From: an uncultured Methanosarcinales archaeon
Lineage (GTDB): Archaea; Nanobdellota; Nanobdellia; Woesearchaeales; GW2011-AR9
DNA: 64,000 nt
Direction of reading: 5' to 3'
NCBI GenBank assembly: GCA_964343575.1
Contig: CAYFJV010000002.1
Coordinates: 69,585-133,584, forward strand
This document shows positions 13,456 through 54,075 of this stretch, piece after piece. Position numbers and translations under genes: made by a program. The notes beneath the pieces were generated by a model. The model had not been told where the DNA came from and ran no database searches. It saw only the letters and a program-made list of their open reading frames with translations. The number at the start of each line of letters is the position of its first letter. Positions within the stretch are counted from its first letter, which is position 1.

Positions 13456-13547
13456 GTTCTTGGAGTTTGGTTTGTTCTCTTTTTATTGCACTGGTCAAGT
13501 GCGGTGAGTGTATATAAAGCATTATTGCATTCTTGCTTTTGATATCT

Positions 13548-13937
13548 ATGAACCGCAAAGCTAAGGGGACAAACGCTGAACGTCAGCTAGTGCATGCAAT
13601 CCATTCTTTTGGTTGGTCTTGTTTGCGGGCAGCCGGGAGCGGGTCTTCACGTTATCCTTGCCCAGATATTTTGGCAGGTAATGGAAGCAGACGTCTTGCT
13701 ATCGAGTGTAAAGTTACGAAGGAGAAACGTAAATACTTTAGCGCTGAAGATGTGCAGCAGTTGCGTATTTTTGCTCGCAACTTTGGAGCTGAGTCTTGGC
13801 TGGGGGTGAAGTTTGGCTCTGAGGATTGGTATTTCGTGATGCTTGAAGATCTTATCGAGACCAAAAGTGCTTTTGTCATTTCTTTAGATGTTGCTGAACG
13901 TCGTGGCTTGAGGTTGAAAGAGTTGTTGGAGAGTTAG
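13548..13937 (+). CDS. hjc: Holliday junction resolvase Hjc
   Basis: KGTNAERQLV...GSGSS...PDILA...IECKV matches the Hjc catalytic core (E, D, E-x-K). Start reassigned to MNRKAKG. Confidence 0.75.
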   Translation: MNRKAKGTNAERQLVHAIHSFGWSCLRAAGSGSSRYPCPDILAGNGSRRLAIECKVTKEKRKYFSAEDVQQLRIFARNFGAESWLGVKFGSEDWYFVMLEDLIETKSAFVISLDVAERRGLRLKELLES

Positions 13938-14003
13938 TTTTTTTCTTTTTTAGGTGTTGATTGGCAGCTGCTTGTGAGGTTGGAAAAGTTGTCTTCTTTG
14001 ACG

Positions 14004-14017
14004 AAAGCTTTATAAGT
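14004..14017 (+). promoter_or_regulatory. BRE/TATA-like motif AAAGCTTTATAAG upstream of the TFE gene
   Basis: Recurrent motif about 52 nt upstream of the ATG at 14068, implying a short 5' UTR. Confidence 0.35.
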
Positions 14018-14067
14018 GTCGTCCTTTGTCGTAGAGGACAAGATAGTGGGGTCTGTCCAGTTCTAAG

Positions 14068-15108
14068 ATGCGTCTAACCAAACAAAAAATTGATGGAGTC
14101 ATCATAAAAATCCTTGGAGAACAAGGTTTATCCCTGGTGGAACTTCTTCAGGGGCAAGAAAACGTTTCTGAGTTTGATATTGCAAAAAAGCTCAAGAAAG
14201 ATATCAAAGTTGTTCGTAAGATGCTCTATTTGCTTTACAATCACAATTTAGTTTCTTTCACACGAAAAAAAGACAAGCAAAAAGGATGGTATATTTACTA
14301 TTGGACCCTTATGCTCGAATCTTTACGCTTTCAATACCTTAAACAGAAAAAGGAGACTCTTGCTCGGCTTGAAAAGATGCTTGAGCGAGAGAGAAAAGAG
14401 ATTTTCTTTGTCTCTCCAGATGGAAGCACTCGTTTAAGTTTTGATGAAGCAATGGAGTTTGACTTTCACTGCCCTGAGACGGGAGCGCTTCTTGAGCAAG
14501 AAGATAATGCTGAGCGTATAACTTTGCTTGAAAAGCGAATCACCGAACTTCGCAAAGAGATTGAAGCTGAACAAAAGTTCCGTGATGCTCAACGCAAGAA
14601 GAGAAGAGAAGAAGCGAAGAAAAAAGCAGCAAAAGAAAAAGCTCGAGAAGAGCGCCGACTTGCAAAAGAGAAGGCTGACAAGGAAAAAGCAAAAGAGGCT
14701 AAACGAAAAGCTAAGGAGCTTGAGAAGAAGAGGGCTGCTCGTGAGCGAGCAAAGGTTCGTGAGGCTAAGAGAAAGGCAAAAGAAGCTGCGAAAAAGAAAG
14801 CAGCAAAAGAAAAAGCTTTGAAGAAAAAGGAAGCTGAGCGTAAGAAAAAAGAGGCTGCAAAGAAGAAGAAGCAAAAGGCAGCAAAAAGAAAAGCAAGCAA
14901 ACGCAAGGTTGCTCGTAAAAAAGCGAGTAAAGCAAAAAAAGCAGTTAAGAAGAAAGTTGCTAAAAAGAAAAAAGTGGTGAAAAAGAAAGCCACAAAGAAG
15001 AAAGCTGCTAGAACAAAATCAAAAGCTTCTAAGAAAAAAACAGTTAAGAGAGTGAAGGTTCCTGCTAAAAAGAAAACTGTAAAAAGAAAGAGCGGGAGAA
15101 AAAAATAA
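14068..15108 (+). CDS. tfe: Transcription factor E alpha (TFIIE-alpha homolog) with an unusual ~190-aa Lys/Ala/Glu-rich C-terminal extension
   Basis: N-terminal winged helix with the GWYIYYWTL motif. The zinc-ribbon region is degenerate (a single Cys, FHCPETG). It is followed by a histone H1-like low-complexity tail (AKKKAAKEKAREE...KKKVAKKKKVVKKKATKKK). Confidence 0.7.
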   Translation: MRLTKQKIDGVIIKILGEQGLSLVELLQGQENVSEFDIAKKLKKDIKVVRKMLYLLYNHNLVSFTRKKDKQKGWYIYYWTLMLESLRFQYLKQKKETLARLEKMLERERKEIFFVSPDGSTRLSFDEAMEFDFHCPETGALLEQEDNAERITLLEKRITELRKEIEAEQKFRDAQRKKRREEAKKKAAKEKAREERRLAKEKADKEKAKEAKRKAKELEKKRAARERAKVREAKRKAKEAAKKKAAKEKALKKKEAERKKKEAAKKKKQKAAKRKASKRKVARKKASKAKKAVKKKVAKKKKVVKKKATKKKAARTKSKASKKKTVKRVKVPAKKKTVKRKSGRKK

Positions 15109-15152
15109 ACTGTTTTATCTTCTAAAATTAAAATTTAAGAAAAAAAGAAGAT

Positions 15153-15422
15153 TTATCTTCGTCTTCTAGTTGTTCTTCGAGAAGTTGTTTTCTTACGAGC
15201 AGGACTTTTTTTCTTCTTTGCTGGAGACTTCTTCTTGATACCAAGAGCTCTCTCAATTACTGCTTCCTCTCGCAAAACTCGCATGGTCATTCTTTGAATG
15301 TTGGACTCCATTCCTGCAACACGTCGCTCAAGCATGATAAGCACACGCAAACTGTAAACAATTGCAGCTAAGGTTCCAATGATGGTTGCGAGAATAACTT
15401 GTAGTAAGGATAATTCTGCCAT
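15153..15422 (-). CDS. Small membrane protein with a basic C-terminal tail
   Basis: One N-terminal TM helix, then a K/R-rich tail. Confidence 0.35.
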   Translation of the reverse strand: MAELSLLQVILATIIGTLAAIVYSLRVLIMLERRVAGMESNIQRMTMRVLREEAVIERALGIKKKSPAKKKKSPARKKTTSRRTTRRRR

Positions 15423-16549: not shown

Positions 16550-17527
16550 CTACCAAACTGCAAGAGTCCTTGAAGATCTTCTTGGTTGAGCCCTTGGCAT
16601 CTCTGAGAGTGGGATGTGATGTTGAGAGTATAGAGTTTTCAAATCATGTGGATCTTCGTATTGCCCCACCCCTTCTAAATTATAATTGCTACAACCAGTT
16701 TTTACTTGGTCAGCACTAAGTCCTAATTGTCCCGTTAACTCTCTTGTTGCTCTGTCAACTGAAAAAGCAAGAGTTTCTCCTCGAATGTATGTTATCCTGG
16801 TCCCAACTCCCGGAGGACAGATACTGCTTGTATGCGCTCCTTCAACTCTAAGCTCCAAATTTGGAGCACCGGGCCCATCATGTACCAGAAGAATTCTGTT
16901 ATCTCCTGCAAAGAGATATTTTACTCTAGACCCATCTAGTTGGATTGGTCTGCTTGGTGTGGCCATAGAGGATCTTGATCTCCCTCTCCTATACTCAAAG
17001 GGTAGGCCTGCAGATTCATATAGCTCTGCAAGAGAACTAAGATCTCCACTTCTCGTAACTCTTTGCATCTTAGGTCCCTTCCCATAAAGGTTTGCTTGGT
17101 GGGAAGGATTCAAGACATCCAGTACCTGATAGCCCTCAAGCCCCCTTGGGAGAACAACAGTCGTGATTCTTCTACCACGAAGAGTATGTTCTCCTCCAAG
17201 GGTTCTAGCTCTTCTTCCTGTGGCCTTAGACAGGCCCGGAGTTCTAGGATAATGAACGAGAAGAAGTGTTCTTGAACAGTCATCATAAAGAGCAGTTTCA
17301 ACTTCTACCCCTGCAAGCATATCAATAAAAGACCTTTCTGGTTCTGGTGCTCTCACTCCTTCAGCTTGCGTAGAGCCCTGAGATTCTTCTCTTGCGTGTT
17401 GAAAGTTTGGGTTTTTAGGCTTTGGGCCCTTATTTGCTTTCCCTCCCCGACTAGGGTGGTGCGCATTTTTAGCAGCTATTCTTGCTCTTGTCTTTTCTCT
17501 TGCTCTTAATCTTGATTTCCTTGACAT
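16550..17527 (-). CDS. Arg/Gly/Pro-rich ORFan with a highly basic N-terminal arm; compositionally atypical (about 48% GC)
   Basis: 325 codons with no stop. The first 45 aa are R/K-rich (MSRKSRLRAREKTRARIAAKNAHHPSRGGKANKGPKPKNPNF) and the rest looks globular. GC is clearly higher than in flanking genes. A TATA-like box lies 30-40 nt upstream. Confidence 0.45.
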   Translation of the reverse strand: MSRKSRLRAREKTRARIAAKNAHHPSRGGKANKGPKPKNPNFQHAREESQGSTQAEGVRAPEPERSFIDMLAGVEVETALYDDCSRTLLLVHYPRTPGLSKATGRRARTLGGEHTLRGRRITTVVLPRGLEGYQVLDVLNPSHQANLYGKGPKMQRVTRSGDLSSLAELYESAGLPFEYRRGRSRSSMATPSRPIQLDGSRVKYLFAGDNRILLVHDGPGAPNLELRVEGAHTSSICPPGVGTRITYIRGETLAFSVDRATRELTGQLGLSADQVKTGCSNYNLEGVGQYEDPHDLKTLYSQHHIPLSEMPRAQPRRSSRTLAVW

Positions 17528-17645: not shown

Positions 17646-20600
17646 TTACTTCCCCATAAACGCGCCCAGACCCACTTGCTTATCTTTGGCTTTACCAAAG
17701 ACGGTGTCAATGTTATGTTTAAGCAGATTAATGGTTTGCTTCAAGTAGGGAGAAAAATCGTATTTCTGCGCAAGCTCAAGGCTTGGTTCAAGATACTTCA
17801 CTACCGATCCTTCAGAGATGGTAAAAATTATCTTTCCTGTTTTACAAGTATGGCACTTATTGCTTATCGGTGGGCGACGATATTTCGTGTTACATTTCCC
17901 GCAACGAAAGCCTTGCATAGAAAACTTTCTAAAATTCCCTTTGATATCCGCTAAAAAGTGTCGCTGGATTACCATTCGAGCAACATCATCCATATCAACT
18001 GCGCGCACTTTTCTTGCGATTTCCATTTGACCGAATAATTTTTCTTTCATACTCGGCAAAATTTTGTAGGCTGAGCAGTTTACTCCTTTGTTAAAGTTGT
18101 CAACATGGTGTGTAAAACCAAAACCTTCATACTGTTCTGGAGTATCAAGCTTGTGATCAAGCTGTACGATTTTCTTTTTTTCTTTACCATAACGCACTTC
18201 CCAAGGAGCTTTCATTTCCAACGCTGCTTCATAAAGTTCTAAAGGATAACGCCATTCCATATCAACTCCTAAGACTTGGTCGTCAACCTCACTTGGAGAA
18301 AGTACTGGGGTGAGTACCAGCGCAGCATCCATGGTTGATCCCCTACTACTTGGAAGATATCTCTTGGAGAAATTAAGTAAACCATCAAGAAGGAGCATTA
18401 CTGCTGCTTCGTCACCATCGCAGTCCCTTCGCAGTCCCGCATGGTACATTGGGTGCGTAATAAGCCCTTGCGTGTGTGCAAAACCAATAATTCTCCCCAC
18501 CGTTCCTGCAGAAATGTGCGGAGCTAAACCAATTACTAAATGACCCACAAGATCTTTTTCATTTTTTACTTTATAGAAGGGTTTGAGACCATAGTGGTTG
18601 ACCAGCATATCATCAATAAACTGCGCTACCCTTGTGAGCACTTGCGCAGCTGATTCTTCAAGCACATCAACGGCAGGCAAGATGACATCTTGTGGCCTCA
18701 TTTCCAAAATTTGGTCGTCATTTTCAAGGTATTTTCCATGAATGTCTCTTTCATAACCAAGTTCTTTGAGTCTTTCAATACTTGTTCCAATCTCTTTTGG
18801 CTTGAAATGGGTAAGAGGTAGTTCAGTACAATCGTAGCGCGTGGTGCCATCTTTATTTACGGCAACGTTGTGTTTTGCTCGCAAGATGCCTTTCATTAAG
18901 TGTTCAGCAATTTTTTCTCTGTTGCTTGTCCCACGGACCCCTTTGATAAGATCGGGAATGATTTTGGTATTGAGTTTCTTTTTGAGAGCATCTACAATTT
19001 CGATAATCTCAATCTTTTGTAAGAGTTTTTCTTGCTCAAACTCTTCTGTTGGTTCTCCTGTTTGATGGCAACAACGAAAAGGACTAAGCTTACCTTCTTT
19101 GGTCTTGAACATTTTAATGGGAGCGTTAATCTCTCCCTCTTCAAGAGCTGCTTGAATGCTTCGCATTCTTCCTCCTTCTTCTCCAACTGGAAAAAGTACG
19201 TGAGGAGAGCCCGTCATTTTGCGCATCTTGGCTTTTTCTGGTCTTCCCATTCGCGCGCCGATAAAAGTTCCTGCCTTATCACGCTGTTTTATGGGCGCGT
19301 GCTGATTAAGGTATCTAAGAGGATTTTTGTAGCTTCCTTCTTTGAGAGTTTTGAGAGAGAGAGAAAGATTTTTGATCTCTTCTAGCGTTGAAAAATTGAG
19401 TAAGAAAGAGAGTACTTGACTCTCTGTTTTCTCAAGTACAATATTTTCTTTATTGATTAATTGATGAGGGATCCCTAGCAATTCGAGTGCTTGCTTTGCT
19501 TCTTGGCAAGCTTGCTCTTTTTTGTCAAAAGGAATGATGATTTTTTTGATCTCTTCGCTCTTTTCTTCCTTCTTTAGTTTTGAAGAGGAGAGAATAGATA
19601 TAAGAGTTTGAAATTGTCGCATAGCCAGTAGTTTCCAAAAGTAAGTAAAGTCAGAGTGTAATGGTACTTGAAGCTGCTTGCTAATCGTCTTTGCTTCTTG
19701 AAATGTTGGTGAGAAGAAAAGTGGCTTTTGGATGTATTTGAGAAAATTTTCTGTATCTATTTTGAAATCACTTGCAGCCTTGCTTAAATGCTCTTTAGTT
19801 GGAATCTCTACTTCGATTGCATATTTTTCTCTTATTGTTTTTTCTACTTCTTGCGCCCACCATTCTGGACAATACCCCGCGGGGACCAGTTTGTGTCCAT
19901 TCTCAGAAAAATCTCCATAATTAAACAAGATATCTCCAAGGTAAAGTACTTCCTCAACCTCGTTAGCATGTTGTTTTGCTAGCTCTTGGGTAGGAAGTTG
20001 TAACACATTTCCATTATTGAGCCGTACAATCGGTCCTTCAAGCGTGTCGCAAACAGTTACCGTCGCTGCTTTTCCGGGTCGCTCTACTTTCATTTGCGTT
20101 CCGATGGCAATGAACTTGTCAAGCACCACAAGCGTCGCTGGGTGTAAAGCTGCTGCAGAAAACCCAGAGGTTCTTCCTCTTCCGTAACGAAGACGAAATC
20201 CTCCCTCTCTTACTGGATGTGTAAGTACGGGTCTTCCTGCAACCATATCTGAAATAAAGGTATTGTTTGCCTTTACCTTTACTTCTTCCTCTTTTCCCTT
20301 TGCATTTTTGTCTTTTGGTCCTGCTTTTTTTTCCTTCTTCTGACCGTGCTGCGCATGAATCTTATCTTTAAGATCAATAAATTCTTTGATGAACTCCCAC
20401 TCTAAATCAAAATCCTTTCCCCACTTGCTTAGTCGTTTCCATAGTTTTGGTGCCTTTTGACAAAGTCCTTCTGCTACTACCAAACACATTCCTCCACGAA
20501 TGAGGTTTGTAGCAATTCTTGGAAGGTCTTTATAATTAGAAACCTCAATTTTTTCAGTTGGATCCCCGTCAACTTCAACAGGCAAATGAGAGAGCATAAA

Positions 20601-21251
20601 GTTTAACTCTTCATCACTTGGATGGTATTGGAGGTTGGTTACCCGATCATGATAATCATGCACTTCTGCAGTGTAACGTTTTACTTCGGTTTCATTCGGA
20701 TCGTAAGGAGCATAACCCATCTTTACTCGAACATAATCAGCAAGAATAACACTTGTGGAGGAAGCGGTACCCCCTGCTCCTCGAATTGGTCCAGCGTATC
20801 TTAGCGCAAGGTATTCTTTTCCATCCTTTCTTTTCTTTACTTCAATACCGATGAAGCCCTCCAAAGGTGCTGCCACAATCCCAAGTGTGAGGTAGGCAAA
20901 GCCTGTTCTGATTCCCACTTCAATTGCTTCTTTTTTGTTTTTGAATTTACAAAATTTTTCTTTGGCAACTTCTTCGGCGATTTTGAAACCGACGCGCCAA
21001 TCAAGCGTTCCGTATTCTTTTTCTAACTCTTGAACACGCTCAGGAATATTTGTTTCTAGAATTTGGGGGGCCACAATGCTCACAAGTCCAAGCACCCGAT
21101 CTGCCATGGTGTTTGCCAAGATGATTTCTGGTTTGTCTTCGGGATCGAGTTGTTTTGCTCTTGCTTGGTTAGCGATGGTGTAGCAGATGTCGACATCCTT
21201 TCGTAAATTTTCGAAGTATTTACTAATGGTTGGGGAAGCGACTATTGCCAT
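17646..21251 (-). CDS. polC: DNA polymerase D large subunit (DP2)
   Basis: 1201 aa with conserved DP2 segments throughout, including the catalytic region (GDEAAVMLLLD) and C-terminal Zn fingers (CGKCNTKYRRPPISNKCHTCK). Length is typical; no intein is apparent. Confidence 0.95.
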   Translation of the reverse strand: MAIVASPTISKYFENLRKDVDICYTIANQARAKQLDPEDKPEIILANTMADRVLGLVSIVAPQILETNIPERVQELEKEYGTLDWRVGFKIAEEVAKEKFCKFKNKKEAIEVGIRTGFAYLTLGIVAAPLEGFIGIEVKKRKDGKEYLALRYAGPIRGAGGTASSTSVILADYVRVKMGYAPYDPNETEVKRYTAEVHDYHDRVTNLQYHPSDEELNFMLSHLPVEVDGDPTEKIEVSNYKDLPRIATNLIRGGMCLVVAEGLCQKAPKLWKRLSKWGKDFDLEWEFIKEFIDLKDKIHAQHGQKKEKKAGPKDKNAKGKEEEVKVKANNTFISDMVAGRPVLTHPVREGGFRLRYGRGRTSGFSAAALHPATLVVLDKFIAIGTQMKVERPGKAATVTVCDTLEGPIVRLNNGNVLQLPTQELAKQHANEVEEVLYLGDILFNYGDFSENGHKLVPAGYCPEWWAQEVEKTIREKYAIEVEIPTKEHLSKAASDFKIDTENFLKYIQKPLFFSPTFQEAKTISKQLQVPLHSDFTYFWKLLAMRQFQTLISILSSSKLKKEEKSEEIKKIIIPFDKKEQACQEAKQALELLGIPHQLINKENIVLEKTESQVLSFLLNFSTLEEIKNLSLSLKTLKEGSYKNPLRYLNQHAPIKQRDKAGTFIGARMGRPEKAKMRKMTGSPHVLFPVGEEGGRMRSIQAALEEGEINAPIKMFKTKEGKLSPFRCCHQTGEPTEEFEQEKLLQKIEIIEIVDALKKKLNTKIIPDLIKGVRGTSNREKIAEHLMKGILRAKHNVAVNKDGTTRYDCTELPLTHFKPKEIGTSIERLKELGYERDIHGKYLENDDQILEMRPQDVILPAVDVLEESAAQVLTRVAQFIDDMLVNHYGLKPFYKVKNEKDLVGHLVIGLAPHISAGTVGRIIGFAHTQGLITHPMYHAGLRRDCDGDEAAVMLLLDGLLNFSKRYLPSSRGSTMDAALVLTPVLSPSEVDDQVLGVDMEWRYPLELYEAALEMKAPWEVRYGKEKKKIVQLDHKLDTPEQYEGFGFTHHVDNFNKGVNCSAYKILPSMKEKLFGQMEIARKVRAVDMDDVARMVIQRHFLADIKGNFRKFSMQGFRCGKCNTKYRRPPISNKCHTCKTGKIIFTISEGSVVKYLEPSLELAQKYDFSPYLKQTINLLKHNIDTVFGKAKDKQVGLGAFMGK

Positions 21252-42034: not shown

Positions 42035-42604
42035 ATGGACCCGGTAAGTTTTTTGCTTCTTCTCGTAGTTCTTTTAGGAGTATTCTTTACTCTTCTCTAT
42101 CTTCTTTTTAAGCAGAAGGAAGAACACTTTGAGTATAGTTTGCCTTTGGAAGATGGGGAAGACGATGAGAAAAAAAGATCTTTTTTTGATCCTTCATTTT
42201 TTGCTAGAATTCAAGAACACCTCTTTTTTTTGCGTAAGAAGCACAAGAGAAAAGTGAGCTCTTACAAGCGTCATGAAGAGTTTGCAACCTTCCCTGAAAC
42301 TAAGGCTGCTTTTGTTGCTGGAAAAGACACTTCACAAAAGACAGGGAAAGGGATTGGAAAGGGTAGACACATGCACCGTCTTGGTAAGCTAGTTGATAAA
42401 CATCAACGAAAAAAAGTAAAAGCGTCTGCAGGAGGTAAGAAGAAGGAAAAAAAGTTTTTTCTGAACAGAGTTTTGGCTAAACGTATTGATTTTTGGAAAG
42501 AGAATACTCCTTTGCATTCTATCGAACGCATTGATGCTCTTGAAAGAGTTCGTTCTGTAGCAAAAGGTGCTGTGAAAAAGAAAGAAATTAAGAAAAAGAA
42601 GTAA
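42035..42604 (+). CDS. Membrane protein with an N-terminal TM helix and a long basic cytoplasmic region
   Basis: MDPVSFLLLLVVLLGVFFTLLYLLF followed by a K/R-rich region. Confidence 0.4.
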   Translation: MDPVSFLLLLVVLLGVFFTLLYLLFKQKEEHFEYSLPLEDGEDDEKKRSFFDPSFFARIQEHLFFLRKKHKRKVSSYKRHEEFATFPETKAAFVAGKDTSQKTGKGIGKGRHMHRLGKLVDKHQRKKVKASAGGKKKEKKFFLNRVLAKRIDFWKENTPLHSIERIDALERVRSVAKGAVKKKEIKKKK

Positions 42605-42714: not shown

Positions 42715-45700
42715 ATGGTGGAAACGAGTAAAAAGAGGACCCTTGTAGATGTAATTCTAGCTCGAGCTTTTTTCTTTGGCCTTCTGTTTATTCTTACTGT
42801 GATTTCGCTTAACGGCGCCTTTGCTGTTGGCTTAGAAGGGTGTTACACTTATGCGGGAGGAAGCCCAGACCTTTTTTGTCAAGATGATGTCTTAGAAGAA
42901 GATGCTTTGGCTGACTATGAGCTCTTAGTTGGAGACGGGCTTTTTGATGATTATTTTTTCCCTGGGCAGAGTTGTGATGTTTTTCCTGACCTTTGTGAAG
43001 AAGTGACTTGCTCTTTGGATTGTAGCACGCAGGCGATTGGTTCTTGTGAATTTGAAGGAGGACAAGCAGTTCCAGATGATGAATATGATTTGTGGTGTAG
43101 TTGGGGTTGTTGTCAAATCCCTTCAGGTTATTGTGGTCAAGTAGATCTGCGCTCTGTTTGTGTGGAAGAAGCTTCTTACCAAGGATATTCTATCGATGAA
43201 GTAACTTACATCAGTTCAGCTTACAGTCCGATCACCACAGATGAATGTGTAGATCTTTGTGTTGCAGGATTGGAGGATGCGAGCTTAAGTGGTTACATCT
43301 TTGATGCAGCGGACGGAGTAACTCCAATTGAAGGAGCAACAGTTGAACTTCGATCGGGAGTTACAGCTCAAAGTGATGTGGCAGGATTTTATCAATTTCA
43401 AACAGTGAGCCCTGGAACTTATGTGGTAAGTGTTAGTGCAACTGGCTATTCTGGAGCTTCGCAGACAATAACTTTGGAATCTGGGGAAGTTGAAGAACTT
43501 GATTTCACTTTGAGCGTTGCAGACCAAGTAGCAAGTCTTTCTGGAACTGTGGTGGATGAGTTTGGTGTTGCAGTAGCTGACGTTTCTTTATGTTGGACTG
43601 GCCCAGGGGTTGGTTGTACTACTTCTGCAGTAGATGGTTCTTATTTGGTTAGCGAAATCTTACTTGGAGATTATACTTTTACTCTGAGTAAGTTTGGTTA
43701 TGAGACAAGTAGCGATAGTCTAAGCATTCAATCAGACCTGGTCTATGATTTTGTTCTCTTCTCTCAACCGTTCCAAGGTATTAGTGGAAGCACCTGGATT
43801 GATCCAGAAGGAGATGGTTTGCTTCTTGGCGGAACAGATTACTTGCAGTATGGGGTAAGTATCTTCGTAGATGGGATCTATCGGGGAAGTTCACAATACC
43901 CTGATGGAGATTTTAATATTTATCTTGATGAAGGAGATTATACCATAACAGCGAGCTACCTTGATTTTGTCTCTCCTGAGTACAGTGTTACTGTTCTTGC
44001 TGGACAGTCAAGTTCTGTTGATCCTGTGTTAACACAGTACATTGGAGAGTGTAGTTATGGTCAACCGGACGAGTCAAAACCAGTTGCAGAATTACATGCG
44101 GTCGCGGTTGCTGGTTCTCTTGCTGTAGATTTGAGTTGGGATAAACCTTGTGCTGAGGTGAGTGGTTATAATCTTTATCGTGACGGTGAGCTACACATGC
44201 AACTTTCACCTTTCGCTTTAAGTTTTACCGATTCAATTGATTTGGAATGGGGAATGGGTTATATCTATGGAATCCAAGCGATTTATACTGATGGTCCGAT
44301 GATTGATGACCAACCTCAAACTCGCTTTTCAGAGATTACTGAGACAAGCATCACTCTTGGAAATGCCGCTTGTGAAGGAAAAGAACCCGGAGATCTTTTT
44401 TGTCTGGCTGACGATCTAAAGTCAACTTACACTTGCGATATTTTCAACACTCTTTTGATCAGTACAAGTTGTGCTGCTTTAGATACAAGTACGAGCGATT
44501 ATTATTGTGTAGAATCAAGCCCAGGATTTGCAACCTGTAAAGACGCAGGTATGTGTAACGCCTTTACTCTTGGCGCCGATCCTTTTGGTTTGTACCACAG
44601 CGAAGAAGTTTGTTATGGCCCTTACCTTGGCGCAGAGAGCGGTTATGAGAATTATTGTTACTATGATTACACTTCTGGAGTTGTTGATCAGTGTACGAGT
44701 TGCGTGGAGGTAGAAAGTTGTTTTGATTATGTTAGTGAGGGGGCTTGTGGTATCAACAACTGTTTGGGAGTTGGTTGTCAATGGATCAACGGAAGTTCTT
44801 CTTCTGGAGAAGGAGATATTAGTGCTTATGAAGAAGAGAGCGAACCTTTCTTAGATTATGGTTACCTTTTCCCTGTGAGCGAGGAGACGGGCCATGGTTA
44901 TTGCGCCCCGCTTGAGTATGAAGAGGATGATAATTGCGCCCTTTGTTCTCCTGGAAGCAGTCTTTTTGAAAACAACTTGTGTACTCCTGAAGTTTGTACT
45001 GAATTGGGCGCTTGTTACTCTGATAAGGATTTGCCTTTGAGTACTTGCCATTCCTGTGGCGAAGAAAGTAGTCCCGAGGTGAACTGTTACAGTTATGCTT
45101 CAGAGCTGGAATGTACTGCAGGAAGCCCAACTGTGAACGATAATGGACAAATTTTGCGTTCAGCAGATAGCTGTACTTGGGGTGCTTGCGCTTGGATTGC
45201 CGATGACTTTGATCCTGCCGGTGGTTATTGTATCAAAGATGGGGATGCCAACCGTATTGATGATTGTTCTGAGTTTGTCTCAGGAGATTATTCTTCTTGT
45301 ATTGCAGATACTGCTCCGCCAGTGACTTCTTTGCAAGCAGAGGGCTTTGCAATTGTATCTGAGACATTTTCACAATTAGAATTTGTTGCTGTTGATAACG
45401 AGAGGATGGGGAGTCTGTGGTTCTGTTTGGAAAGCGCTGATGCAAGTGATTGTACTGATTTTGAAGCCGCAGATTATCCTTTCACCTTGCAGGGAGAAGA
45501 AGCTCTTTTGGAACTTAACATGAGTGAGTCAAGTTTTTTACAGTCAGAATTGGTTGATGGCGAGACTTACAAACTTCGCTTCTACTCCGTTGATGAGTTC
45601 TATAACCAAGAATCTGTACAAGAAGCTTTTGTTTTCGTTGATAACAAACTTCCCGATTTTACTGTTGTAACTGAGCCAAGCATAGATGGAGATGTTGTAG

Positions 45701-48700
45701 ATCTCTTAGTCTATCTTACTGATTTGAGCGAGCCAGTGAGTTGTAGTTTTACATTGGAAGAAATTTTGCCTCCTGCTGCAGAGCAAGTTATTGGGTTTGA
45801 ACGTGACGAGGACAAAGAATACACTTTTGTAGGCCTTGGGGCTACTCTTGCCGAGTTGAGTGTTTCTTGTACTGATGATCATGGAAACTCTTTTGTGCAT
45901 GAAGAGACCCTTAGTTTTGATCTAGAACAAGATATTAGTATTGTTTATCCTCCTTTGGGTGGCTCTGTTTCTGAGACCACAATTATTTTTGAGATTGAGA
46001 CCGCAGTGTCTGCAAGTTGTGACTTGTATTACGATAATGATGGCGACCTTATCTTTGATTATCTAAGTAACTTTAACAGTATCGATATTGATAATAAGGT
46101 TCACGAAACTAACCCGATTCCTGGCTTCTTCGAAGGAGAATATGTTGGTAACTTACAGGTGATTTGTCGAGAATCTTTGGATCAGAGCCAAGTGTTAGAA
46201 GATTATTTTGATTTTGTCGTAGATTTTACCGGGCCAGAGACACAGATTATTTTGACTGAAGGGACCAGAGAAGAAACCCCAATTGCTTATGGTTGGGAAG
46301 AATACTTTATCTCTGAAGTGCAGGTGGACTTTAGTTGTGAGGCAGATGGATTTGATTGTGACCAAAGTTTTTATTGTCTTGGAGAAGGTTGTGAATTTGC
46401 AAGTGCCCCGGGTTATGTAGAGTACACTGGAAGCGGCAGTTTGTTTGTAAATGAAACAACAGAAATTTGTTATTACTCTACAGATCTTGGCGGTTCTACT
46501 GTTTATCCTACTTGTGGAACCATCATCGTAGAGGGCTTTGGCATCAATTTAGTTCAACCGGACCCTTATTTCTATCAAGGAGAAGTTTATGGAGTAAGTG
46601 CAGCCGATAGCTTTGATTGGGAAGTTATGAGCAAGATTGATACTCAAGGCTGCGTTTTTGATTTCACTTCAGAATTTGATTATCATGGGGTCCCTCTAAT
46701 CCGAACTTTCTCGGAAAGTCTTAGTGGAGAAAATTACTACCTTTATTCTCCTTTCCCTGGAGATGGGGCGAGCGCTTACGACGCAATTGGCGGGCTTAAA
46801 GTCCTTTATGTGAAATGTGAAGATTACCAAGGAGAGATTGGTCCTGCACAGAAAATGAACCTTGAGTTCGATCCTTCTGCTCCAAGTATTAGTGATGCTT
46901 ACGCTGAGCCAGATTTTATCACCGAAGGAGTTGTTACTCATCTTTATGTGACCACCGATGATCCTACGCTTTGTAGGTACAGTGATAACTCAGATGGGGA
47001 CGGAAGTACTGAATTTGCAACTATGCCATTCAGTTTCCCTGGTTACGATGAAGGAGAATTGCATCTTGCTCATCAAGACGATTTTATTTTCAGTTTTGTT
47101 GGTGCAACAAGAGATTACAGCTTAAATGTACAATGTATGAACGGGGCAGGAGACCTTTCTGAAGTTGAAACCATTGATTTTAGTGTAGATTATACTGTTG
47201 CAGGAAACATTATGAGTGTTGCTCCGAGTGGTTTTATCTCTGGAGAAAACGTTACTTTACTTGTTGAGACTAACAAAAACGGCGTTTGTTCTTACGAAGA
47301 AAATGGCAGTTCAGTTGATTTTGAAGTAACTGGTGGCACAAGTCACAGCCATTTGATTGGGTCTCTTGAAGAAGGAGATTATCAATACCTTGTCACTTGC
47401 CATATCGCAGAAAATGTACGCACTGCCGAGATTATCTTTACTGTAGATCAAACTGCGCCAACTGTGACCATGGTAGAGGATGGTTCTTACTCTTGTAGTT
47501 TGGAGCAAGTGAGCATTTATGTTTACACAGACGAAGAAAACATTAGCACTTATTACTATCAACTCTATCAAGGAGAATCAGATCTTGGAGAATCTTCTTT
47601 GAGTACTTACTTTACTACTACTAATGATACAGCCCCAGATGATGAAGAAGCAGTGCTTATTGGAGAAGGAACCTTGTTAGGGGACAATGGTACTGTGATT
47701 ACTGGACTTAGTTTAGAAGAAAATGAGAGTTACTTTGTGAAGGTTGCAGCAAGCGATGTTGCTGGAAACACTGGCGGATACACTTCAAGTGATGGTTTTA
47801 TTGCAAGTGGTTCTGACCTTACTGTTTGTGCTGCTGATGGTGATGCGCCAAACGTTCGCGTACAAACCAACAGTAGTAGTTGTACTGAAGTCACCGCCGA
47901 AATTATTTGTGAGGATGAACTTGCTTGTAGTAGCATTAGTTATGGACAGAGCACAAGTTCCGAGACCTGCTCTGCCGATTCAAGTTATTATGGACAAAAA
48001 CTTTCCTTCTCAAGCTCTGGGTGGGTTTGTTACTCTGCAAGCGATCCAAGCGATAACCAAGAGAATGGGAGTGCTCAAATAACCTTTAGTGATAATGATG
48101 GAGATGGCATCTCTGATAGTTGTGATCTTTGTAGTGGTACTCTGTCTGGACAAGATGTTGATGCAGAAGGTTGTGGTCTAGGGCAGGTTCCAGATGATGA
48201 GCGAACAAATGATGAAGATAACGATGGTTTGCCAGATCATTGGGAAAGAGTCTATCACAGAGAAGGTGTTTGTCCTTTGTTTGCCGAAGCAATAGACTCG
48301 GACAGTAATGGTATTACTGATACTGATGAAGATTATGATGGGGACGGTTACACTAACTATGAAGAGTACATTGCTGGTTTAGACCCTTGTGTTGCTGATG
48401 CTCCGAGCACCTTTATTGATGACAATGATCTTGACAGCGAACTTCTGGGCCTTCCTGGAAGTGGAGAAGGAAAGGAAGGGGCCGATGTTGTAGCTATTAT
48501 CTTCTTTGTCATTGGCGCACTGTTCATGCTTGGTGGTGCGGGTTATCTTTATTATTATTATAATTACACTCCAGAAGGGAAGGTTCTTTTGAAGCAAGGG
48601 GGGAAAGGGAGTCTGAGAGGAGTCGGTTCTGGCGGCGCTCTTGGAAGTAGCGTTGGTGGCGGCCTATATCGTCAAGGAATTGGTTCTCGATCAGCAGGTG

Positions 48701-49140
48701 CAGGTCTTGGGGGTTCCGGGGCTAGGGCTGGGTTCGGGGCCACGGGAGTTGCAGGCGGAGGACTTTTAGATAGTATGAGACGGAGAGTTTCCTCTCGTAA
48801 GCGATCCCGAGAACGAAAGTTACGATCTTTGCAAAGGCAGAACGTCTTTGGAAGTTTTAGTAAAGAGAGTGGAGAATTCCCCCACTTTAAGGATATTTTG
48901 AGCTCTCGAAAGAGTCATCATGCAAAGGTAGGAGATCTTGTTGAGCGTTACAACGATCACCATGATGTTGTACAACAAGGTTTGAAGAAAGAAGAAAAGG
49001 CTCTTTTTAGGCGCTTAGATAAAATCTCTAGTGAAGCAGAGAAAAAGAAGCAAAGTGTTCGAGCAACAGTTGGTAAAGATGAAGCTAAAGATATTTTTGA
49101 AAAGTTGAAGAAATTGAGCGAGAAGCGTAAGTCAAGCTGA
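42715..49140 (+). CDS. Giant (2141 aa) surface adhesin-like protein: Sec signal peptide, CarboxypepD_reg-like domains, Cys-rich modules, TSP3-type Ca-binding repeats, C-terminal TM anchor and Gly-rich basic tail
   Basis: The signal peptide carries an AFA|VG signal-peptidase site. Two CarboxypepD_reg-like beta-sandwich repeats are present (SGYIFDAADGVTPIEGATVELRSG...GFYQF...PGTYVVSVSATGY, and a second copy). Near the C-terminus are D-x-D-x-D-G motifs (DEDNDGLPDHWE, DTDEDYDGDGYTNYEEYIAGLDPC) typical of thrombospondin type 3-like calcium-binding repeats. The protein ends with a TM helix (VVAIIFFVIGALFMLGGAGYLYYYY) and a Gly/Arg-rich tail. Confidence 0.7.
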   Translation: MVETSKKRTLVDVILARAFFFGLLFILTVISLNGAFAVGLEGCYTYAGGSPDLFCQDDVLEEDALADYELLVGDGLFDDYFFPGQSCDVFPDLCEEVTCSLDCSTQAIGSCEFEGGQAVPDDEYDLWCSWGCCQIPSGYCGQVDLRSVCVEEASYQGYSIDEVTYISSAYSPITTDECVDLCVAGLEDASLSGYIFDAADGVTPIEGATVELRSGVTAQSDVAGFYQFQTVSPGTYVVSVSATGYSGASQTITLESGEVEELDFTLSVADQVASLSGTVVDEFGVAVADVSLCWTGPGVGCTTSAVDGSYLVSEILLGDYTFTLSKFGYETSSDSLSIQSDLVYDFVLFSQPFQGISGSTWIDPEGDGLLLGGTDYLQYGVSIFVDGIYRGSSQYPDGDFNIYLDEGDYTITASYLDFVSPEYSVTVLAGQSSSVDPVLTQYIGECSYGQPDESKPVAELHAVAVAGSLAVDLSWDKPCAEVSGYNLYRDGELHMQLSPFALSFTDSIDLEWGMGYIYGIQAIYTDGPMIDDQPQTRFSEITETSITLGNAACEGKEPGDLFCLADDLKSTYTCDIFNTLLISTSCAALDTSTSDYYCVESSPGFATCKDAGMCNAFTLGADPFGLYHSEEVCYGPYLGAESGYENYCYYDYTSGVVDQCTSCVEVESCFDYVSEGACGINNCLGVGCQWINGSSSSGEGDISAYEEESEPFLDYGYLFPVSEETGHGYCAPLEYEEDDNCALCSPGSSLFENNLCTPEVCTELGACYSDKDLPLSTCHSCGEESSPEVNCYSYASELECTAGSPTVNDNGQILRSADSCTWGACAWIADDFDPAGGYCIKDGDANRIDDCSEFVSGDYSSCIADTAPPVTSLQAEGFAIVSETFSQLEFVAVDNERMGSLWFCLESADASDCTDFEAADYPFTLQGEEALLELNMSESSFLQSELVDGETYKLRFYSVDEFYNQESVQEAFVFVDNKLPDFTVVTEPSIDGDVVDLLVYLTDLSEPVSCSFTLEEILPPAAEQVIGFERDEDKEYTFVGLGATLAELSVSCTDDHGNSFVHEETLSFDLEQDISIVYPPLGGSVSETTIIFEIETAVSASCDLYYDNDGDLIFDYLSNFNSIDIDNKVHETNPIPGFFEGEYVGNLQVICRESLDQSQVLEDYFDFVVDFTGPETQIILTEGTREETPIAYGWEEYFISEVQVDFSCEADGFDCDQSFYCLGEGCEFASAPGYVEYTGSGSLFVNETTEICYYSTDLGGSTVYPTCGTIIVEGFGINLVQPDPYFYQGEVYGVSAADSFDWEVMSKIDTQGCVFDFTSEFDYHGVPLIRTFSESLSGENYYLYSPFPGDGASAYDAIGGLKVLYVKCEDYQGEIGPAQKMNLEFDPSAPSISDAYAEPDFITEGVVTHLYVTTDDPTLCRYSDNSDGDGSTEFATMPFSFPGYDEGELHLAHQDDFIFSFVGATRDYSLNVQCMNGAGDLSEVETIDFSVDYTVAGNIMSVAPSGFISGENVTLLVETNKNGVCSYEENGSSVDFEVTGGTSHSHLIGSLEEGDYQYLVTCHIAENVRTAEIIFTVDQTAPTVTMVEDGSYSCSLEQVSIYVYTDEENISTYYYQLYQGESDLGESSLSTYFTTTNDTAPDDEEAVLIGEGTLLGDNGTVITGLSLEENESYFVKVAASDVAGNTGGYTSSDGFIASGSDLTVCAADGDAPNVRVQTNSSSCTEVTAEIICEDELACSSISYGQSTSSETCSADSSYYGQKLSFSSSGWVCYSASDPSDNQENGSAQITFSDNDGDGISDSCDLCSGTLSGQDVDAEGCGLGQVPDDERTNDEDNDGLPDHWERVYHREGVCPLFAEAIDSDSNGITDTDEDYDGDGYTNYEEYIAGLDPCVADAPSTFIDDNDLDSELLGLPGSGEGKEGADVVAIIFFVIGALFMLGGAGYLYYYYNYTPEGKVLLKQGGKGSLRGVGSGGALGSSVGGGLYRQGIGSRSAGAGLGGSGARAGFGATGVAGGGLLDSMRRRVSSRKRSRERKLRSLQRQNVFGSFSKESGEFPHFKDILSSRKSHHAKVGDLVERYNDHHDVVQQGLKKEEKALFRRLDKISSEAEKKKQSVRATVGKDEAKDIFEKLKKLSEKRKSS

Positions 49141-49183
49141 TCTATAGCTTTGTGGCTCAGATGGGAAGTTGGTTGATAGGAAG

Positions 49184-49717
49184 ATGTTTTGGAACAAAAA
49201 AGGGATGGGCATTCAGCAAGTTTTTGTCTTTATTGTAGCGGCAATAGTTTTTGCTATCATTACTATTTTTGGTTACAGTGCTATTACTGATTTTATTGAT
49301 AAGGGAGAGCAGGTTGAGTTTTATCAGTTTAAGACAGAGATCGAATCAAGTATCAAGAAGATTTATCCTGAGTTTGGAGCAGTGCGCCAAGAAGAATATC
49401 GAGTACCAGTAGAGTATGAACAGATTTGTTTTGTTGATTTGGACGCTCCTTTTGATCCGAGCTCTGAACTTTGCGAGAAAGACCCCATTGCTTGTGATGT
49501 TTGGGAAACTGCGCAAGACCCTTTAGCAGAAATTACTGGTTATGCTGCTGCTGACGAGAATGTGTTTTTGAAACCTCCTGCGCCAATTGCCTTAAAGGTG
49601 TTCACTTTAGATATTGATGGTGGATTCCTTTGTGAAGATATTAATGGGGGGCGCTTCTCACTTCGTTTGGAAGGAAGGGGCTCTTCTGTTGAACTGAGTT
49701 CGGTTGTGTATCAGTAG
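49184..49717 (+). CDS. Type IV pilin-like protein (class III signal peptide)
   Basis: MFWNKKG|MGIQQVFVFIVAAIVFAIITIFGY. An SD-like TAGGAAG precedes the ATG at 49184; the track start is 49169. Confidence 0.5.
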   Translation: MFWNKKGMGIQQVFVFIVAAIVFAIITIFGYSAITDFIDKGEQVEFYQFKTEIESSIKKIYPEFGAVRQEEYRVPVEYEQICFVDLDAPFDPSSELCEKDPIACDVWETAQDPLAEITGYAAADENVFLKPPAPIALKVFTLDIDGGFLCEDINGGRFSLRLEGRGSSVELSSVVYQ

Positions 49718-49782
49718 GGCATGGTTTGGTGAAGGGGTGTGAGCGAGTTTTTTGGTAGCTAAGATACTTGGAATATTGGAAA

Positions 49783-50934
49783 ATGAAATTTTTTGAGAGT
49801 GGCGGAATTTTTGGAAAGAAAGGGCAGTTTACACTTACTTTCAATTGGATTTACGTGCTCATAGTTGGAGCAGTTATCTTGCTTTTTTTTGTTGGTTTGG
49901 CAGTAAAGCAAACTGAAGTTTCTGAGCAACAACTTACTTTTGATGTAACCCAAATTTTAGATTCTATTTTTACGGGAGCCACAGTTTCTGAGAAGACGAA
50001 GAATTTTATAGATACTTCGGCGCTGCTTGATTTTAGTTTGACTTTTGAGTGTGAGTTAGATGCTGGTGGAGGTTTTCGTGATATTTTCTCTGGCTACGGT
50101 TTGGAGGGAACAAGCTCTAGCATCGAAACTCCCATAGAAGCAATTTTTGCTCCAGAAGAGATTCAGTCTAATGAAGTTATTACTTGGAGTTTACCTTATT
50201 ATTTGCCTTTCAAAGTAATGGATGTACTTTTGCTCAGCTCTCGTAACATTCAGTATTATGTGCTTGGTGGAGAAGGAACAGACTTTCGTATTGAGATGGA
50301 GAACATAACTGAAGGCTTTAACATAGCTTTTATCGATTCGCTCGATGAAGTTGAATCTGGAGATAATTTTCATGTGCGTGTAGTTGAATTTTCTTCTGGC
50401 GGAGTTGGTGATTCTCTTGTTTCGGGAGGAGCAGTGCCTGGAAGTTTGCTGATGCTTGCAGATAGTCAAGTCTCTGGTGTTTCTTTAACTCCTTCAAATG
50501 GGGCCTTTTATTTTTCTAAACAAGGTGGCGTATGGCAGAAAGATCATATTGAAGAAGTAGCAATTGTTTCTTTAGATGGTGAGCGTGATGCAGCAAAATA
50601 TGCTGCTTTGTTCTCTGGGTCTGCTGAAACTTACCAATGTAACATGATGAAGGTTTTCAAGCGTTTGGAAATCGTAAGCCAAGTCTATTTGAGCAAGTAT
50701 GAAGAATTGCTTGAGTATTATGATGTTACGGGAACAAGTTTGGTTGATCCTTCTTTGAAATCTTTGTGTTCAAACATCTTGGATGGAGATATTTCTTTAC
50801 AACAACTTTCTTCGGCAGCGACTGTGTGTACAATAAGTGGGTACACAGAATGTGTTGAATTAGAAAACTTTGCTTTTGATTTGGCTGCAATTAACGAGCG
50901 TTTGGACGAACGCGGTTGTGTTACTTTGTATTAG
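49783..50934 (+). CDS. Type IV pilin-like protein (class III signal peptide), 384 aa
   Basis: MKFFESGGIFGKKG|QFTLTFNWIYVLIVGAVILLFFVGLAV. Confidence 0.55.
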   Translation: MKFFESGGIFGKKGQFTLTFNWIYVLIVGAVILLFFVGLAVKQTEVSEQQLTFDVTQILDSIFTGATVSEKTKNFIDTSALLDFSLTFECELDAGGGFRDIFSGYGLEGTSSSIETPIEAIFAPEEIQSNEVITWSLPYYLPFKVMDVLLLSSRNIQYYVLGGEGTDFRIEMENITEGFNIAFIDSLDEVESGDNFHVRVVEFSSGGVGDSLVSGGAVPGSLLMLADSQVSGVSLTPSNGAFYFSKQGGVWQKDHIEEVAIVSLDGERDAAKYAALFSGSAETYQCNMMKVFKRLEIVSQVYLSKYEELLEYYDVTGTSLVDPSLKSLCSNILDGDISLQQLSSAATVCTISGYTECVELENFAFDLAAINERLDERGCVTLY

Positions 50935-52749: not shown

Positions 52750-53313
52750 ATGATTCTTTTTATGTTTGCTTTCTTTGCTGGTAGAAAAAGAGGACAAATT
52801 CAGATGATGGAAACTATTGCAGTGCTTTTCATCTTCTTTATTTTGCTTGTTTTTGGCCTTCTTTTCTATTTTAAGTTTCAAGATCTTGGCTTTGAACAAC
52901 GCCAAGAAGAAGTGCTTGGTGCGCGAGCAATGGATAGCACTTTGCAAGTGCTCTTTTTACCTGAATTGCAATGTAGTAGGGGTGATGCTGAAGCAGAAGA
53001 TAATTGTATTGATCTTGCGAAGCTACGAGCGCTTGAAGAGATTGTGCCAACATACCTTAATGACTATTATTTCAACCTTTTTTCTTTTGCAACAGTTACT
53101 GTTCAAGAGACCTACCCTGGGGATGAGACTTGGGTAATTTACGATCGACCAAAAGTAATTGATGATGGTCAAGGGGGAGAGATTGCTAACTGGCAGAGAA
53201 AGGAGCCGAGTTATTTTGTGGTTGCTTTGAAAGACGAGTTGGCTGAAGAATATGGTGCGATTGGAAAAGATAAGTACAGTTATGGGTATTTGGTAGTTGA
53301 GGTGTACTCATGA
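52750..53313 (+). CDS. Type IV pilin-like protein (class III signal peptide)
   Basis: ...GRKRG|QIQMMETIAVLFIFFILLVFGLLFYF. The stop overlaps the next gene's ATG (ATGA). Confidence 0.5.
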   Translation: MILFMFAFFAGRKRGQIQMMETIAVLFIFFILLVFGLLFYFKFQDLGFEQRQEEVLGARAMDSTLQVLFLPELQCSRGDAEAEDNCIDLAKLRALEEIVPTYLNDYYFNLFSFATVTVQETYPGDETWVIYDRPKVIDDGQGGEIANWQRKEPSYFVVALKDELAEEYGAIGKDKYSYGYLVVEVYS

Positions 53314-53858: not shown

Positions 53859-54075
53859 TTTTTTTGTTTCTTGTTTTATTTTTCTGTTTCATTGTGCTTG
53901 GCTTCGTTTAGTTTATTTTGTTCTTTTCTTGTTCATTTAGTTCTCTGTTAACGCAATCTTTATATATGCAAAATGGTTTTTGCTTTATTAATTTACAGTC
54001 GTAAAAACTCATTACAACTTGCTTGTAGCAATCTAGTTGCTTGCAAATGTTGTTGTGGGATCACAAAGAGGTGTA

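Follow-up and report, generated by a model that had tools for sequence, protein, structure and literature searches.

The TFE-alpha gene and its core

We analysed a 64,000-nucleotide stretch of archaeal DNA (contig CAYFJV010000002.1; hereafter the window) with a focus on the open reading frame (ORF) 14068..15108, which encodes TFE-alpha, a member of the TFE/TFIIE family of universal archaeal and eukaryotic initiation factors. The protein consists of a recognizable TFE-alpha core followed by a Lys/Ala-rich tail, and Table 1 lists the coordinates of its parts together with those of a candidate promoter and the convergent neighbour. A purine-rich sequence resembling a B recognition element (CGAAAG, 14002-14007) lies just 5′ of the putative TATA-like element.

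Table 1. The TFE-alpha gene, its parts and its immediate surroundings in the window
Feature	Position	Strand	Description and basis
Candidate archaeal promoter	14009..14015	+	TATA-like TTTATAA, ~55 nt 5′ of the ATG; read from sequence
TFE-alpha gene, complete	14068..15108	+	346 codons and TAA stop; ORF list, Pfam, NCBIfam and PDB matches
Extended winged-helix domain	14068..14313	+	aa 1-82; AlphaFold2 pLDDT 91-97; alignment to 6kf4_G
Linker helix, winged helix to zinc ribbon	14314..14397	+	aa 83-110; AlphaFold2 pLDDT 95-98; as in the Thermococcus kodakarensis fold
Degenerate zinc-ribbon domain	14398..14508	+	aa 111-147; ligand columns S116, S120, C135, T138
Conserved C-terminal core helix	14509..14583	+	aa 148-172; NCBIfam matches to aa 172, PDB matches to aa 180, AlphaFold2
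Mixed-charge K/E/R/A segment	14584..14799	+	aa 173-244; composition, AlphaFold2 helix
Disordered polycationic tail	14800..15105	+	aa 245-346; composition; AlphaFold2 pLDDT <50, no secondary structure
Convergent neighbour, 89 aa	15153..15422	-	N-terminal transmembrane helix, second helix, K/R-rich C-terminal tail; separate from TFE-alpha

The first-pass annotation of this DNA had recognized TFE-alpha by its winged-helix motif GWYIYYWTL (aa 73-81 of the 346-aa ORF), and sequence and fold comparisons all agree with that identification. Pfam TFIIE_alpha (PF02002; cut-off 22.9 bits) matches aa 9-109 with a score of 57.2 bits (E = 1.7e-15). NCBIfam models PRK06266 (146.7 bits, E = 4e-43) and TIGR00373 (121.6 bits, E = 2e-35) are each covered almost entirely by aa 4-172; their scores fall below the annotation cut-offs of 180 and 149.5, as expected because the DPANN sequence is divergent, and the homology is clear. 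The best solved relative in a phmmer search of the PDB is TFE-alpha of Thermococcus kodakarensis (Tko; 6kf4_G, aa 11-180, E = 1.5e-27), and that of Pyrococcus furiosus (Pfu) is matched as well (6pln_A, E = 5e-26). Foldseek, run with an AlphaFold2 (AF2) model, also places 6kf4_G first in the PDB (template modelling score 0.72 over 162 columns; E = 3e-11), with TFIIE-alpha of yeast and of human next. The ORF is therefore a bona fide TFE-alpha of a Woesearchaeota/Nanoarchaeota (DPANN) archaeon, and alignment to the NCBIfam and solved TFE-alpha sequences puts the end of its core at aa ~172-180.

The AF2 model, which was built from a 60-sequence alignment (the query and 59 relatives), has a predicted local distance difference test (pLDDT) score of 91-98 over the core and reproduces the order of elements in solved TFE-alpha: winged helix, linker helix, ribbon and C-terminal helix. 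Within the winged helix the model places helices at residues 5-16, 20-27, 35-42 and 46-58 and strands at 62-68 and 75-81. The residues by which the Tko factor contacts the clamp and stalk of RNA polymerase (RNAP) have been defined from structure (PMC7704642), and we compared them with the query through its alignment to 6kf4_G. The hydrophobic patch that binds the clamp is kept (Tko Y55/F65/W75/Y78, here Y54/F64/W74/Y77), as are two arginines (Tko R51/R67, here R50/R66), while the stalk contacts Y114/Y115/F127/D128/M131/F135 correspond to F113/F114/F125/D126/M129/F133. Clamp and stalk contact columns are mostly invariant across the 60-sequence alignment. The core would be expected to dock on RNAP in the standard way.

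A zinc ribbon with a single cysteine

The earlier reading of the ribbon as retaining only one Cys was correct. C135 (codon TGC at 14470-14472) is the sole Cys of the whole protein, which also has two His (H59 and H134), and the four ligand columns, mostly C, C, C and C in the 59 aligned relatives, are otherwise occupied by Ser or Thr (Table 1). Whether Cys alone or Cys, His and Asp are counted, the ribbon does not reach four ligands. It is nevertheless modelled at pLDDT 97-98 (aa 111-147) despite the absent Cys. An analogous case is TFE-alpha of Haloferax volcanii, which retains just the third Cys and has S, A and T at positions 1, 2 and 4; its ribbon shows residual, low-affinity zinc binding through the lone Cys and the factor is functional (PMC5861453). 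Because this validated TFE-alpha still binds zinc weakly, the missing ligands do not disqualify the present protein from the family.

The Cys-poor ribbon is stereotyped, with the pattern F-F-[VI]-S-P-D-G-x-x-R ... C-P-[ED]-T-G common to 8 of the 60 aligned sequences. We considered it as a clade marker, but sequence similarity does not set its carriers apart: by a crude measure, identity outside the ribbon is 0.58 among the eight proteins and 0.59 between them and the four-Cys relatives. The Cys-poor form may thus reflect either a repeated (convergent) change or an old split. This recurrent S-x-C-T ribbon provides, beside Haloferax, a second and independent case of a nearly zinc-free ribbon in TFE-alpha.

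Composition and predicted structure of the tail

Beyond the conserved core the protein extends for ~166-174 aa. Taken as aa 173-346, the tail contains 73 K (42%), 36 A (21%), 20 R, 17 E and 10 V and carries a net charge of +74. Its richest 30-aa stretch holds 19 K+R, whereas none of the 66 other ORFs of the window exceeds 16. The tail thus does about double the protein, as had been proposed (core 1-172, tail 173-346). The long extension stands, and its length is revised from ~190 to ~170 aa because the earlier figure took in ~16-24 residues of the conserved C-terminal helix. Disorder prediction, a check that had been suggested, separates the tail into two parts: the last ~100 aa are predicted to be disordered, but the first ~70 aa are predicted to be helical, and the tail is not uniform.

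The first part, aa 173-244, combines 36 K+R with 15 D+E (net +21) and 17 A, and has only three hydrophobic residues, no Pro and no Gly. Residues of opposite charge are paired 18 times at i/i+4 and 21 times at i/i+3. In the AF2 model the core helix runs on into this segment without a break, so that one helix spans aa 148-244, and pLDDT stays above 90 up to about aa 230. ER/K single alpha-helices combine such pairs with the lack of a hydrophobic seam and with near charge balance; at 36 K+R to 15 D+E, the segment is far from balance. On the model, it resembles a single-alpha-helix-like, cation-heavy spacer of ~70 residues, which would measure ~100 Å if helical. A coiled coil was rejected for this segment, only 3 of its 72 residues being hydrophobic. 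The second part, aa 245-346, is a basic disordered segment that follows the last core helix in the manner of Thermococcales-type tails, with a net charge of roughly +55 over its ~100 aa. Its last 76 aa contain 43 K+R and no acidic residue, spaced by A, V, S and T (13 A, 9 V).

Integrity of the extension

The low complexity of the tail DNA leaves it open to misassembly, and the exact TFE-alpha protein does not occur in a collection of 15 billion proteins, so that a frameshift, a low-complexity misassembly or a read-through into the neighbour has to be weighed as the origin of the extension. The frame runs unbroken from the conserved core helix into the tail, and with a continuous frame nothing in the sequence points to a frameshift or assembly artefact. 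Tandem Repeats Finder detects 9-24-nt units in only two to three copies, all of them imperfect; a perfect repeat liable to collapse or expansion is absent, and the longest A-run is at most 7. A 44-nt spacer separates the end of the TFE-alpha gene from the stop of the convergent, conserved neighbour, an arrangement also seen in relatives. Finally, tails of the same type occur in close homologues from independent assemblies. The first-pass annotation had proposed comparing orthologues and had regarded absence of the tail from close relatives as a sign of a frameshift; the comparison gave the opposite outcome, with a Lys-rich tail in all 107 parsed close homologues. Homologue tails, continuous frame, repeat scan and conserved convergent neighbour together rule out an artefact for all practical purposes.

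Recent tandem-repeat expansion was likewise rejected, given that the repeat arrays are short, imperfect and of two to three copies. We also looked for avoidance of poly(A) and found no signal, AAA accounting for 56% of the Lys codons of the tail and for 64% of those elsewhere in the window (p = 0.17). Long tails have stayed open although some 7% of point substitutions in this one would introduce a stop. The tail DNA is also overlapped by alternative-frame ORFs of 97-146 aa (14528-14821 in the +2 frame; 14434-14874 and 14589-14993 on the minus strand). Their low-complexity translations are R/K/Q- or F/L/S-rich, and we take them to be composition artefacts of the purine-rich Lys/Ala/Glu codons and not genes. 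As for the occurrence of exact sequences, the NhaP protein of the window is present in the public collection, and the small membrane protein encoded next to TFE-alpha is, like TFE-alpha itself, not.

Distribution of the tail among relatives

Three samples of relatives were used. With the core alone as query, 999 proteins were retrieved; the top 120 of them (55-68% identity, 181-309 aa) come from Woesearchaeota, Nanoarchaeota or unclassified 'archaeon' metagenome-assembled genomes (MAGs), and it is through such homologues that the organism is placed. The 107 parsed proteins belong to these 120, and their Lys-rich tails have a median of 51 aa and a maximum of 135 aa, making the tail studied here, at 172 aa, the longest. 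The second sample comprised 80 species-representative genomes (loci L001-L080), where basic tails of 27-134 aa are present in nearly all relatives whose core is more than ~51% identical; tail length and core identity to the query are correlated (rho 0.51). The third consisted of representatives clustered at 50% identity, with 842 matches, 141 of them covering the complete core. Tails of at least 25 aa are present in 87 of the 141 (74 of them basic), of at least 90 aa in 29 and of at least 150 aa in 7, the longest reaching 245 aa.

The tails cannot be aligned among relatives, yet their composition is held at K+R ~45-60% and D+E below ~10%. This constancy, together with the presence of a tail in all of the close homologues, makes the tail look selected for charge. 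The helix-then-polycation layout recurs in independent relatives as well (P0012, P0014, P0068, P0072, P0144, P0148, P0151, P0155 and P0237; L002, L006, L012 and L076). The tail is thus a widespread, hypervariable trait of this section of the TFE-alpha family, conserved in composition and not in sequence, and the copy in the window lies near the long end of the range without being unique: a lineage trait and no one-off oddity. An entire radiation within DPANN has enlarged the TFE-alpha tail to 25-245 residues, with the window copy among the longest (~170 aa, +74).

In many of the more distant TFE-alpha proteins the polycationic tail is closed by a short amphipathic C-terminal motif, G-[FIL]-[FL]-x-x-[IL]-x-x-[KR]..., of which GFLSLIKKRVGF, GLLNKIMRRLREL and GFLGLLFAKKKKK are examples (carriers P0163, P0207, P0216, P0221, P0224, P0246 and P0250; L041, L045 and L052). 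The motif could form a membrane-binding or partner-binding helix. TFE-alpha of the window and its close relatives have no such motif and instead carry K/R runs at the extreme C-terminus.

Basic tails on other proteins

The first-pass annotation had pointed to similar tails on three other proteins of the window and suggested a genome-wide habit of appending them. The tails do exist, but all are far shorter than that of TFE-alpha: the NhaP Na+/H+ exchanger (PF00999; 4586..5926, plus strand) has a basic end of ~28 aa (...KKTKRSSQKKAAGKTQKARRKKKRS), ORF 15153..15422 one of ~27 residues, and ORF 42035..42604 one of ~19 with a weaker signal. Within the window a basic C-terminal suffix of at least 12 aa is found in 3 of 54 ORFs against 3 of 521 (Fisher p = 0.013), a modest excess. 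In the 80 related genomes, where ~8 kb around each TFE gene was examined, strong K/R tails occur in only 2 of 588 flanking non-TFE ORFs of at least 80 aa (2/398 and 0/190), these two being orthologous to the small membrane protein encoded at 15153..15422. Under a laxer test, based on the length of the basic C-terminal suffix, genomes in which the TFE tail is long showed no significant difference from those in which it is short (p = 0.28). All other tails seen are shorter than that of TFE by an order of magnitude, and the TFE tail is also present in genomes whose flanks hold no other strong K/R tails. A genome-wide habit is therefore weakly supported. Some lineage-level tendency, mutational or selective, may contribute, but the tail is primarily a TFE-alpha family trait. 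AT pressure was considered as a cause and set aside, since the correlation of flanking GC content with tail length is weak and negative (rho -0.23) and the window has 40% GC.

The 89-aa neighbour matches no Pfam family. By tblastn, 68 of the 80 related loci contain its orthologue, which in nearly every case is convergent with TFE and lies directly downstream of it. Its basic tail ranges from 1 to 25 aa and, within tail-bearing lineages, is longer alongside the TFE tail.

A proposed role for the tail in transcription initiation

TFE-beta has been reported absent from DPANN (PMC7289017), and where it is present it contacts DNA through lysines of its wing (PMC4495717). The Tko structure is that of an archaeal TFE-alpha whose C-terminal tail of 16 residues is positively charged, its density being untraceable (PMC7704642). 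Our phmmer alignments show a basic tail of this 16-residue type in both the Tko and the Pfu protein; to date, such a tail has been recorded only as an appendage that could not be traced. In solved TFE-alpha the post-ribbon helix pairs with the linker helix, which spans more than 50 Å from the ribbon to the winged helix (PMC7704642). Lysine-rich appendages are also known from Streptomyces, where the lysine repeats of TopA stabilize the enzyme-DNA complex (PMC5714199) and DdbA is a fusion of an H1-like domain with an RNAP-binding module resembling DksA (PMC3643593).

Against this background, we propose that the protein is a monomeric TFE-alpha bearing a rigid helical spacer and a polycationic tether, in a lineage reportedly without TFE-beta, and we put the probability of this reading at roughly 0.55. 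The winged helix would dock on the clamp coiled-coil of RNAP and the ribbon on the stalk, opening the clamp and aiding DNA melting as in Thermococcus; the ribbon would keep its fold and stalk contacts despite the loss of three of four Cys ligands. To judge from the published Tko description, the helix of aa 148-172 would run back toward the winged helix and the clamp tip, and ~70 more helical residues could project ~100 Å beyond it as a stiff spacer. The disordered polycation of ~100 residues (~+55) could then serve as a sequence-independent nucleic-acid tether that reaches promoter-flanking DNA. Electrostatic contacts of this kind, made in the pre-initiation and open complexes, would hold TFE-alpha on or near DNA, raising its affinity and occupancy and stabilizing the closed or open complex, and the tail may in this way compensate for the missing DNA-contacting partner TFE-beta. 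DNA binding, reach and compensation are the parts of the proposal that we infer. The DNA tethering that the first-pass annotation had suggested for the tail is plausible.

Several points weigh against the tether. Tail length is hypervariable, from 7 to 245 aa, and about 24 of the 80 representative species, more distant Woesearchaeota, have a tail-less TFE-alpha of 166-170 aa, so the tail is dispensable for basic TFE function. The length of the neighbour's basic tail covaries with that of the TFE tail (rho 0.75, n = 46, without correction for phylogeny), and covariation with the tail of an unrelated neighbour is also what a lineage-level mutational process would produce. AF2 confidence may be inflated on low-complexity helices, and the direction in which the helix projects is taken from the Tko description and not from model coordinates. 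The absence of TFE-beta is a lineage-level report, this genome being seen through 64 kb only.

One alternative that draws on these same points is a tail that is largely neutral: in DPANN of small population size, Lys/Ala codons rich in A/G would have multiplied, through replication slippage or by biased expansion, at a C-terminus that was already basic and tolerated the change, and the longer tail would have little specific function beyond that of the ancestral short one. The hypervariable length, the lack of alignable sequence and the many tail-less species fit such a process. So do the short imperfect repeats in the tail DNA, and the tail of the adjacent membrane protein, growing in the same lineages, together with the small excess in the window suggests a lineage-wide driver. 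The constancy of composition is harder to reconcile with it, as K+R content is tightly held over deep divergence and the distal part has almost no acidic residues. Neutrality also has to account for the tail in every close homologue, for the rarity of strong K/R tails elsewhere in those genomes (2 of 398 ORFs), for the helical mixed-charge module that recurs ahead of the polycation, for a correlation with AT-richness that is too weak to explain the tails, and for open frames that persist in spite of potential stops. We consider a largely neutral tail unlikely, though worth keeping in mind.

Polycationic disordered regions bind RNA as readily as DNA. The tail could accordingly be imagined to contact the nascent transcript near the stalk, or to link the initiating polymerase to ribosomes or RNA chaperoning. 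The ribbon does sit on the Rpo4/7 (RpoE) stalk (PMC7704642), and an S1 domain of the stalk binds RNA (PMC7289017). However, TFE acts in initiation, and Spt4/5 takes its place once elongation starts (PMC3223566). Moreover, if the C-terminal helix runs back to the winged helix as the Tko structure would imply (PMC7704642), the tail should emerge near the clamp and DNA and not at the RNA exit. Binding to RNA in place of DNA has, in our estimation, only a slim chance of being correct.

The tail had been called histone-H1-like, a description that holds for its K/A-rich composition and not for its domains or motifs. A Pfam scan of the whole protein (E <= 0.01) gave only TFIIE_alpha and a sub-threshold HVO_A0114, with no linker-histone globular domain, and H1 is absent among the PDB sequence-search matches. 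The tail has no SPKK/TPKK motif and only one Pro in 174 residues (1%). An H1-like role would make TFE-alpha double as a nucleoid-associated, linker-histone-like protein that binds and compacts DNA, histone-bound DNA included, across the genome and couples chromatin state to initiation. The succession of a winged helix and a disordered tail rich in K and A (~100 aa, net +55 to +75) does parallel H1, Woesearchaeota encode histones while no H1 homologue has been found in Archaea (PMC6136690), and DdbA offers a precedent (PMC3643593). Against this stand the lack of homology to the H1 globular domain and of SPKK motifs, the existence of tail-less relatives, and a TFE-alpha winged helix that is occupied by the RNAP clamp in the pre-initiation complex (PMC7704642). 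We regard such a dual role as doubtful. A bolder version seems slightly more doubtful still: in one large DPANN group, TFE-alpha would have evolved into a functional linker-histone analogue, an initiation factor coupled to chromatin, whose rigid helical arm of ~100 Å and polycationic tail (+55 to +90) bind histone-coated or naked DNA genome-wide and deliver or retain RNAP, with tail length tuned by lineage along with other DNA-proximal basic tails, for example that of the neighbouring membrane protein. If true, it would be the first H1-like activity in Archaea, and within the basal transcription machinery.

The tether on a monomeric TFE-alpha thus remains our preferred reading. The enlarged tail suggests that the basal machinery of organisms reportedly without TFE-beta contains an electrostatic DNA-tethering module, so far unstudied. 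The main value of the finding lies in a natural series of length variants for probing the role of the basic tail of TFE-alpha.

Other features of the window

The gene order Hjc resolvase, TFE-alpha, small membrane protein (13533-15422 in the window) is conserved among the 80 related loci. Hjc was found in 57 of them, directly upstream of TFE-alpha in most of these 57, and aIF2-beta and DUF424 come next in 36 of the 80. In the window, a 325-aa ORF (16550-17527, minus strand) lies between the aIF2-beta/DUF424 pair and the large subunit of PolD (17646-21251). It is poor in Lys (4%) and rich in Arg, Pro and Gly, belongs to no Pfam family and was not matched by tblastn in the 80 related loci. It could represent a lineage-specific insertion, or the ORF could be spurious.

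From ~39380 to 60908 the window has a strongly positive GC skew and holds a block of Lys-poor plus-strand ORFs, with 1-6% Lys where ORFs of the first 39 kb have 7-20%. The block includes a 2141-aa protein with CarboxypepD_reg and Big_3 domains (42715-49140) and an 809-aa ORF without a family. Nine further ORFs of the block, between 49169 and 60905, have no Pfam match (49169-49714, 49768-50931, 50947-52539, 52750-53310, 53973-54455, 55028-55810, 55839-56825, 57220-57999 and 59544-60905). Such a block could encode a group of surface or secreted proteins, or it could be a foreign island.

Comparison with known systems

The tailed TFE-alpha is not a new system. It exaggerates a known feature and is common in public metagenomes, while we found no description of it in the searchable literature, where searches for long TFE tails or lysine-rich DPANN proteins returned nothing specific. 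Its nearest counterparts are the orthologues in Woesearchaeota and Nanoarchaeota MAGs, which share 55-68% core identity and K-rich tails (for example P0012 with 309 aa, P0068 with 303 aa and P0072 with 297 aa; P0187 has 423 aa), the gene order Hjc, TFE-alpha, small membrane protein and, in eight cases, the S-P-D-G ... C-P-E/D-T-G ribbon. They differ in tail length, which is 172 aa here and at most 135 aa in the 107 close homologues, with distant representatives reaching 245 aa.

The closest characterized relatives are the TFE-alpha proteins of Thermococcus kodakarensis and Pyrococcus furiosus (6KF4/6KF9, 6PLN; PMC7704642), which share the family, the domain order and a disordered positive tail, are monomeric without TFE-beta, and have largely the same clamp and stalk contact residues. 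Core identity of the Tko protein to the one studied here is ~34%. The Tko tail has ~16 residues compared with ~170 here, a roughly tenfold difference, and the mixed-charge helical spacer is additional here. Zinc is held by three Cys and one His in Tko, whereas one Cys is left here. TFE-alpha of Haloferax volcanii shows the same degeneration to a single third Cys (S, A and T at the other positions there; S, S and T here), and the Cys loss there occurred independently, in another phylum. Unlike the protein described here, it pairs with TFE-beta and has no long polycationic tail.

Outside the family, eukaryotic linker histone H1 likewise carries, behind a winged helix, a very highly positive tail of ~100 residues that is disordered and rich in K and A, and both tails presumably neutralize DNA phosphate charge without sequence specificity. 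The two proteins are not homologous, however: the winged helix here is of the TFIIE-alpha type that binds the RNAP clamp, Pro makes up ~10% of the H1 tail and 1% of this one, and Val is frequent here. TopA and DdbA of Streptomyces resemble it in that a protein acting on DNA or RNAP bears an appendage that is polycationic, of low complexity and variable in length. They come from another domain of life, have unrelated cores and more regular repeats (N-terminal in DdbA), and the function of the lysine repeats has been demonstrated for the Streptomyces proteins whereas for this TFE-alpha we propose it by comparison. Both oddities of the protein, in sum, have published precedents within archaeal TFE-alpha itself, the basic tail in Thermococcus (PMC7704642) and the single-Cys ribbon in Haloferax (PMC5861453).

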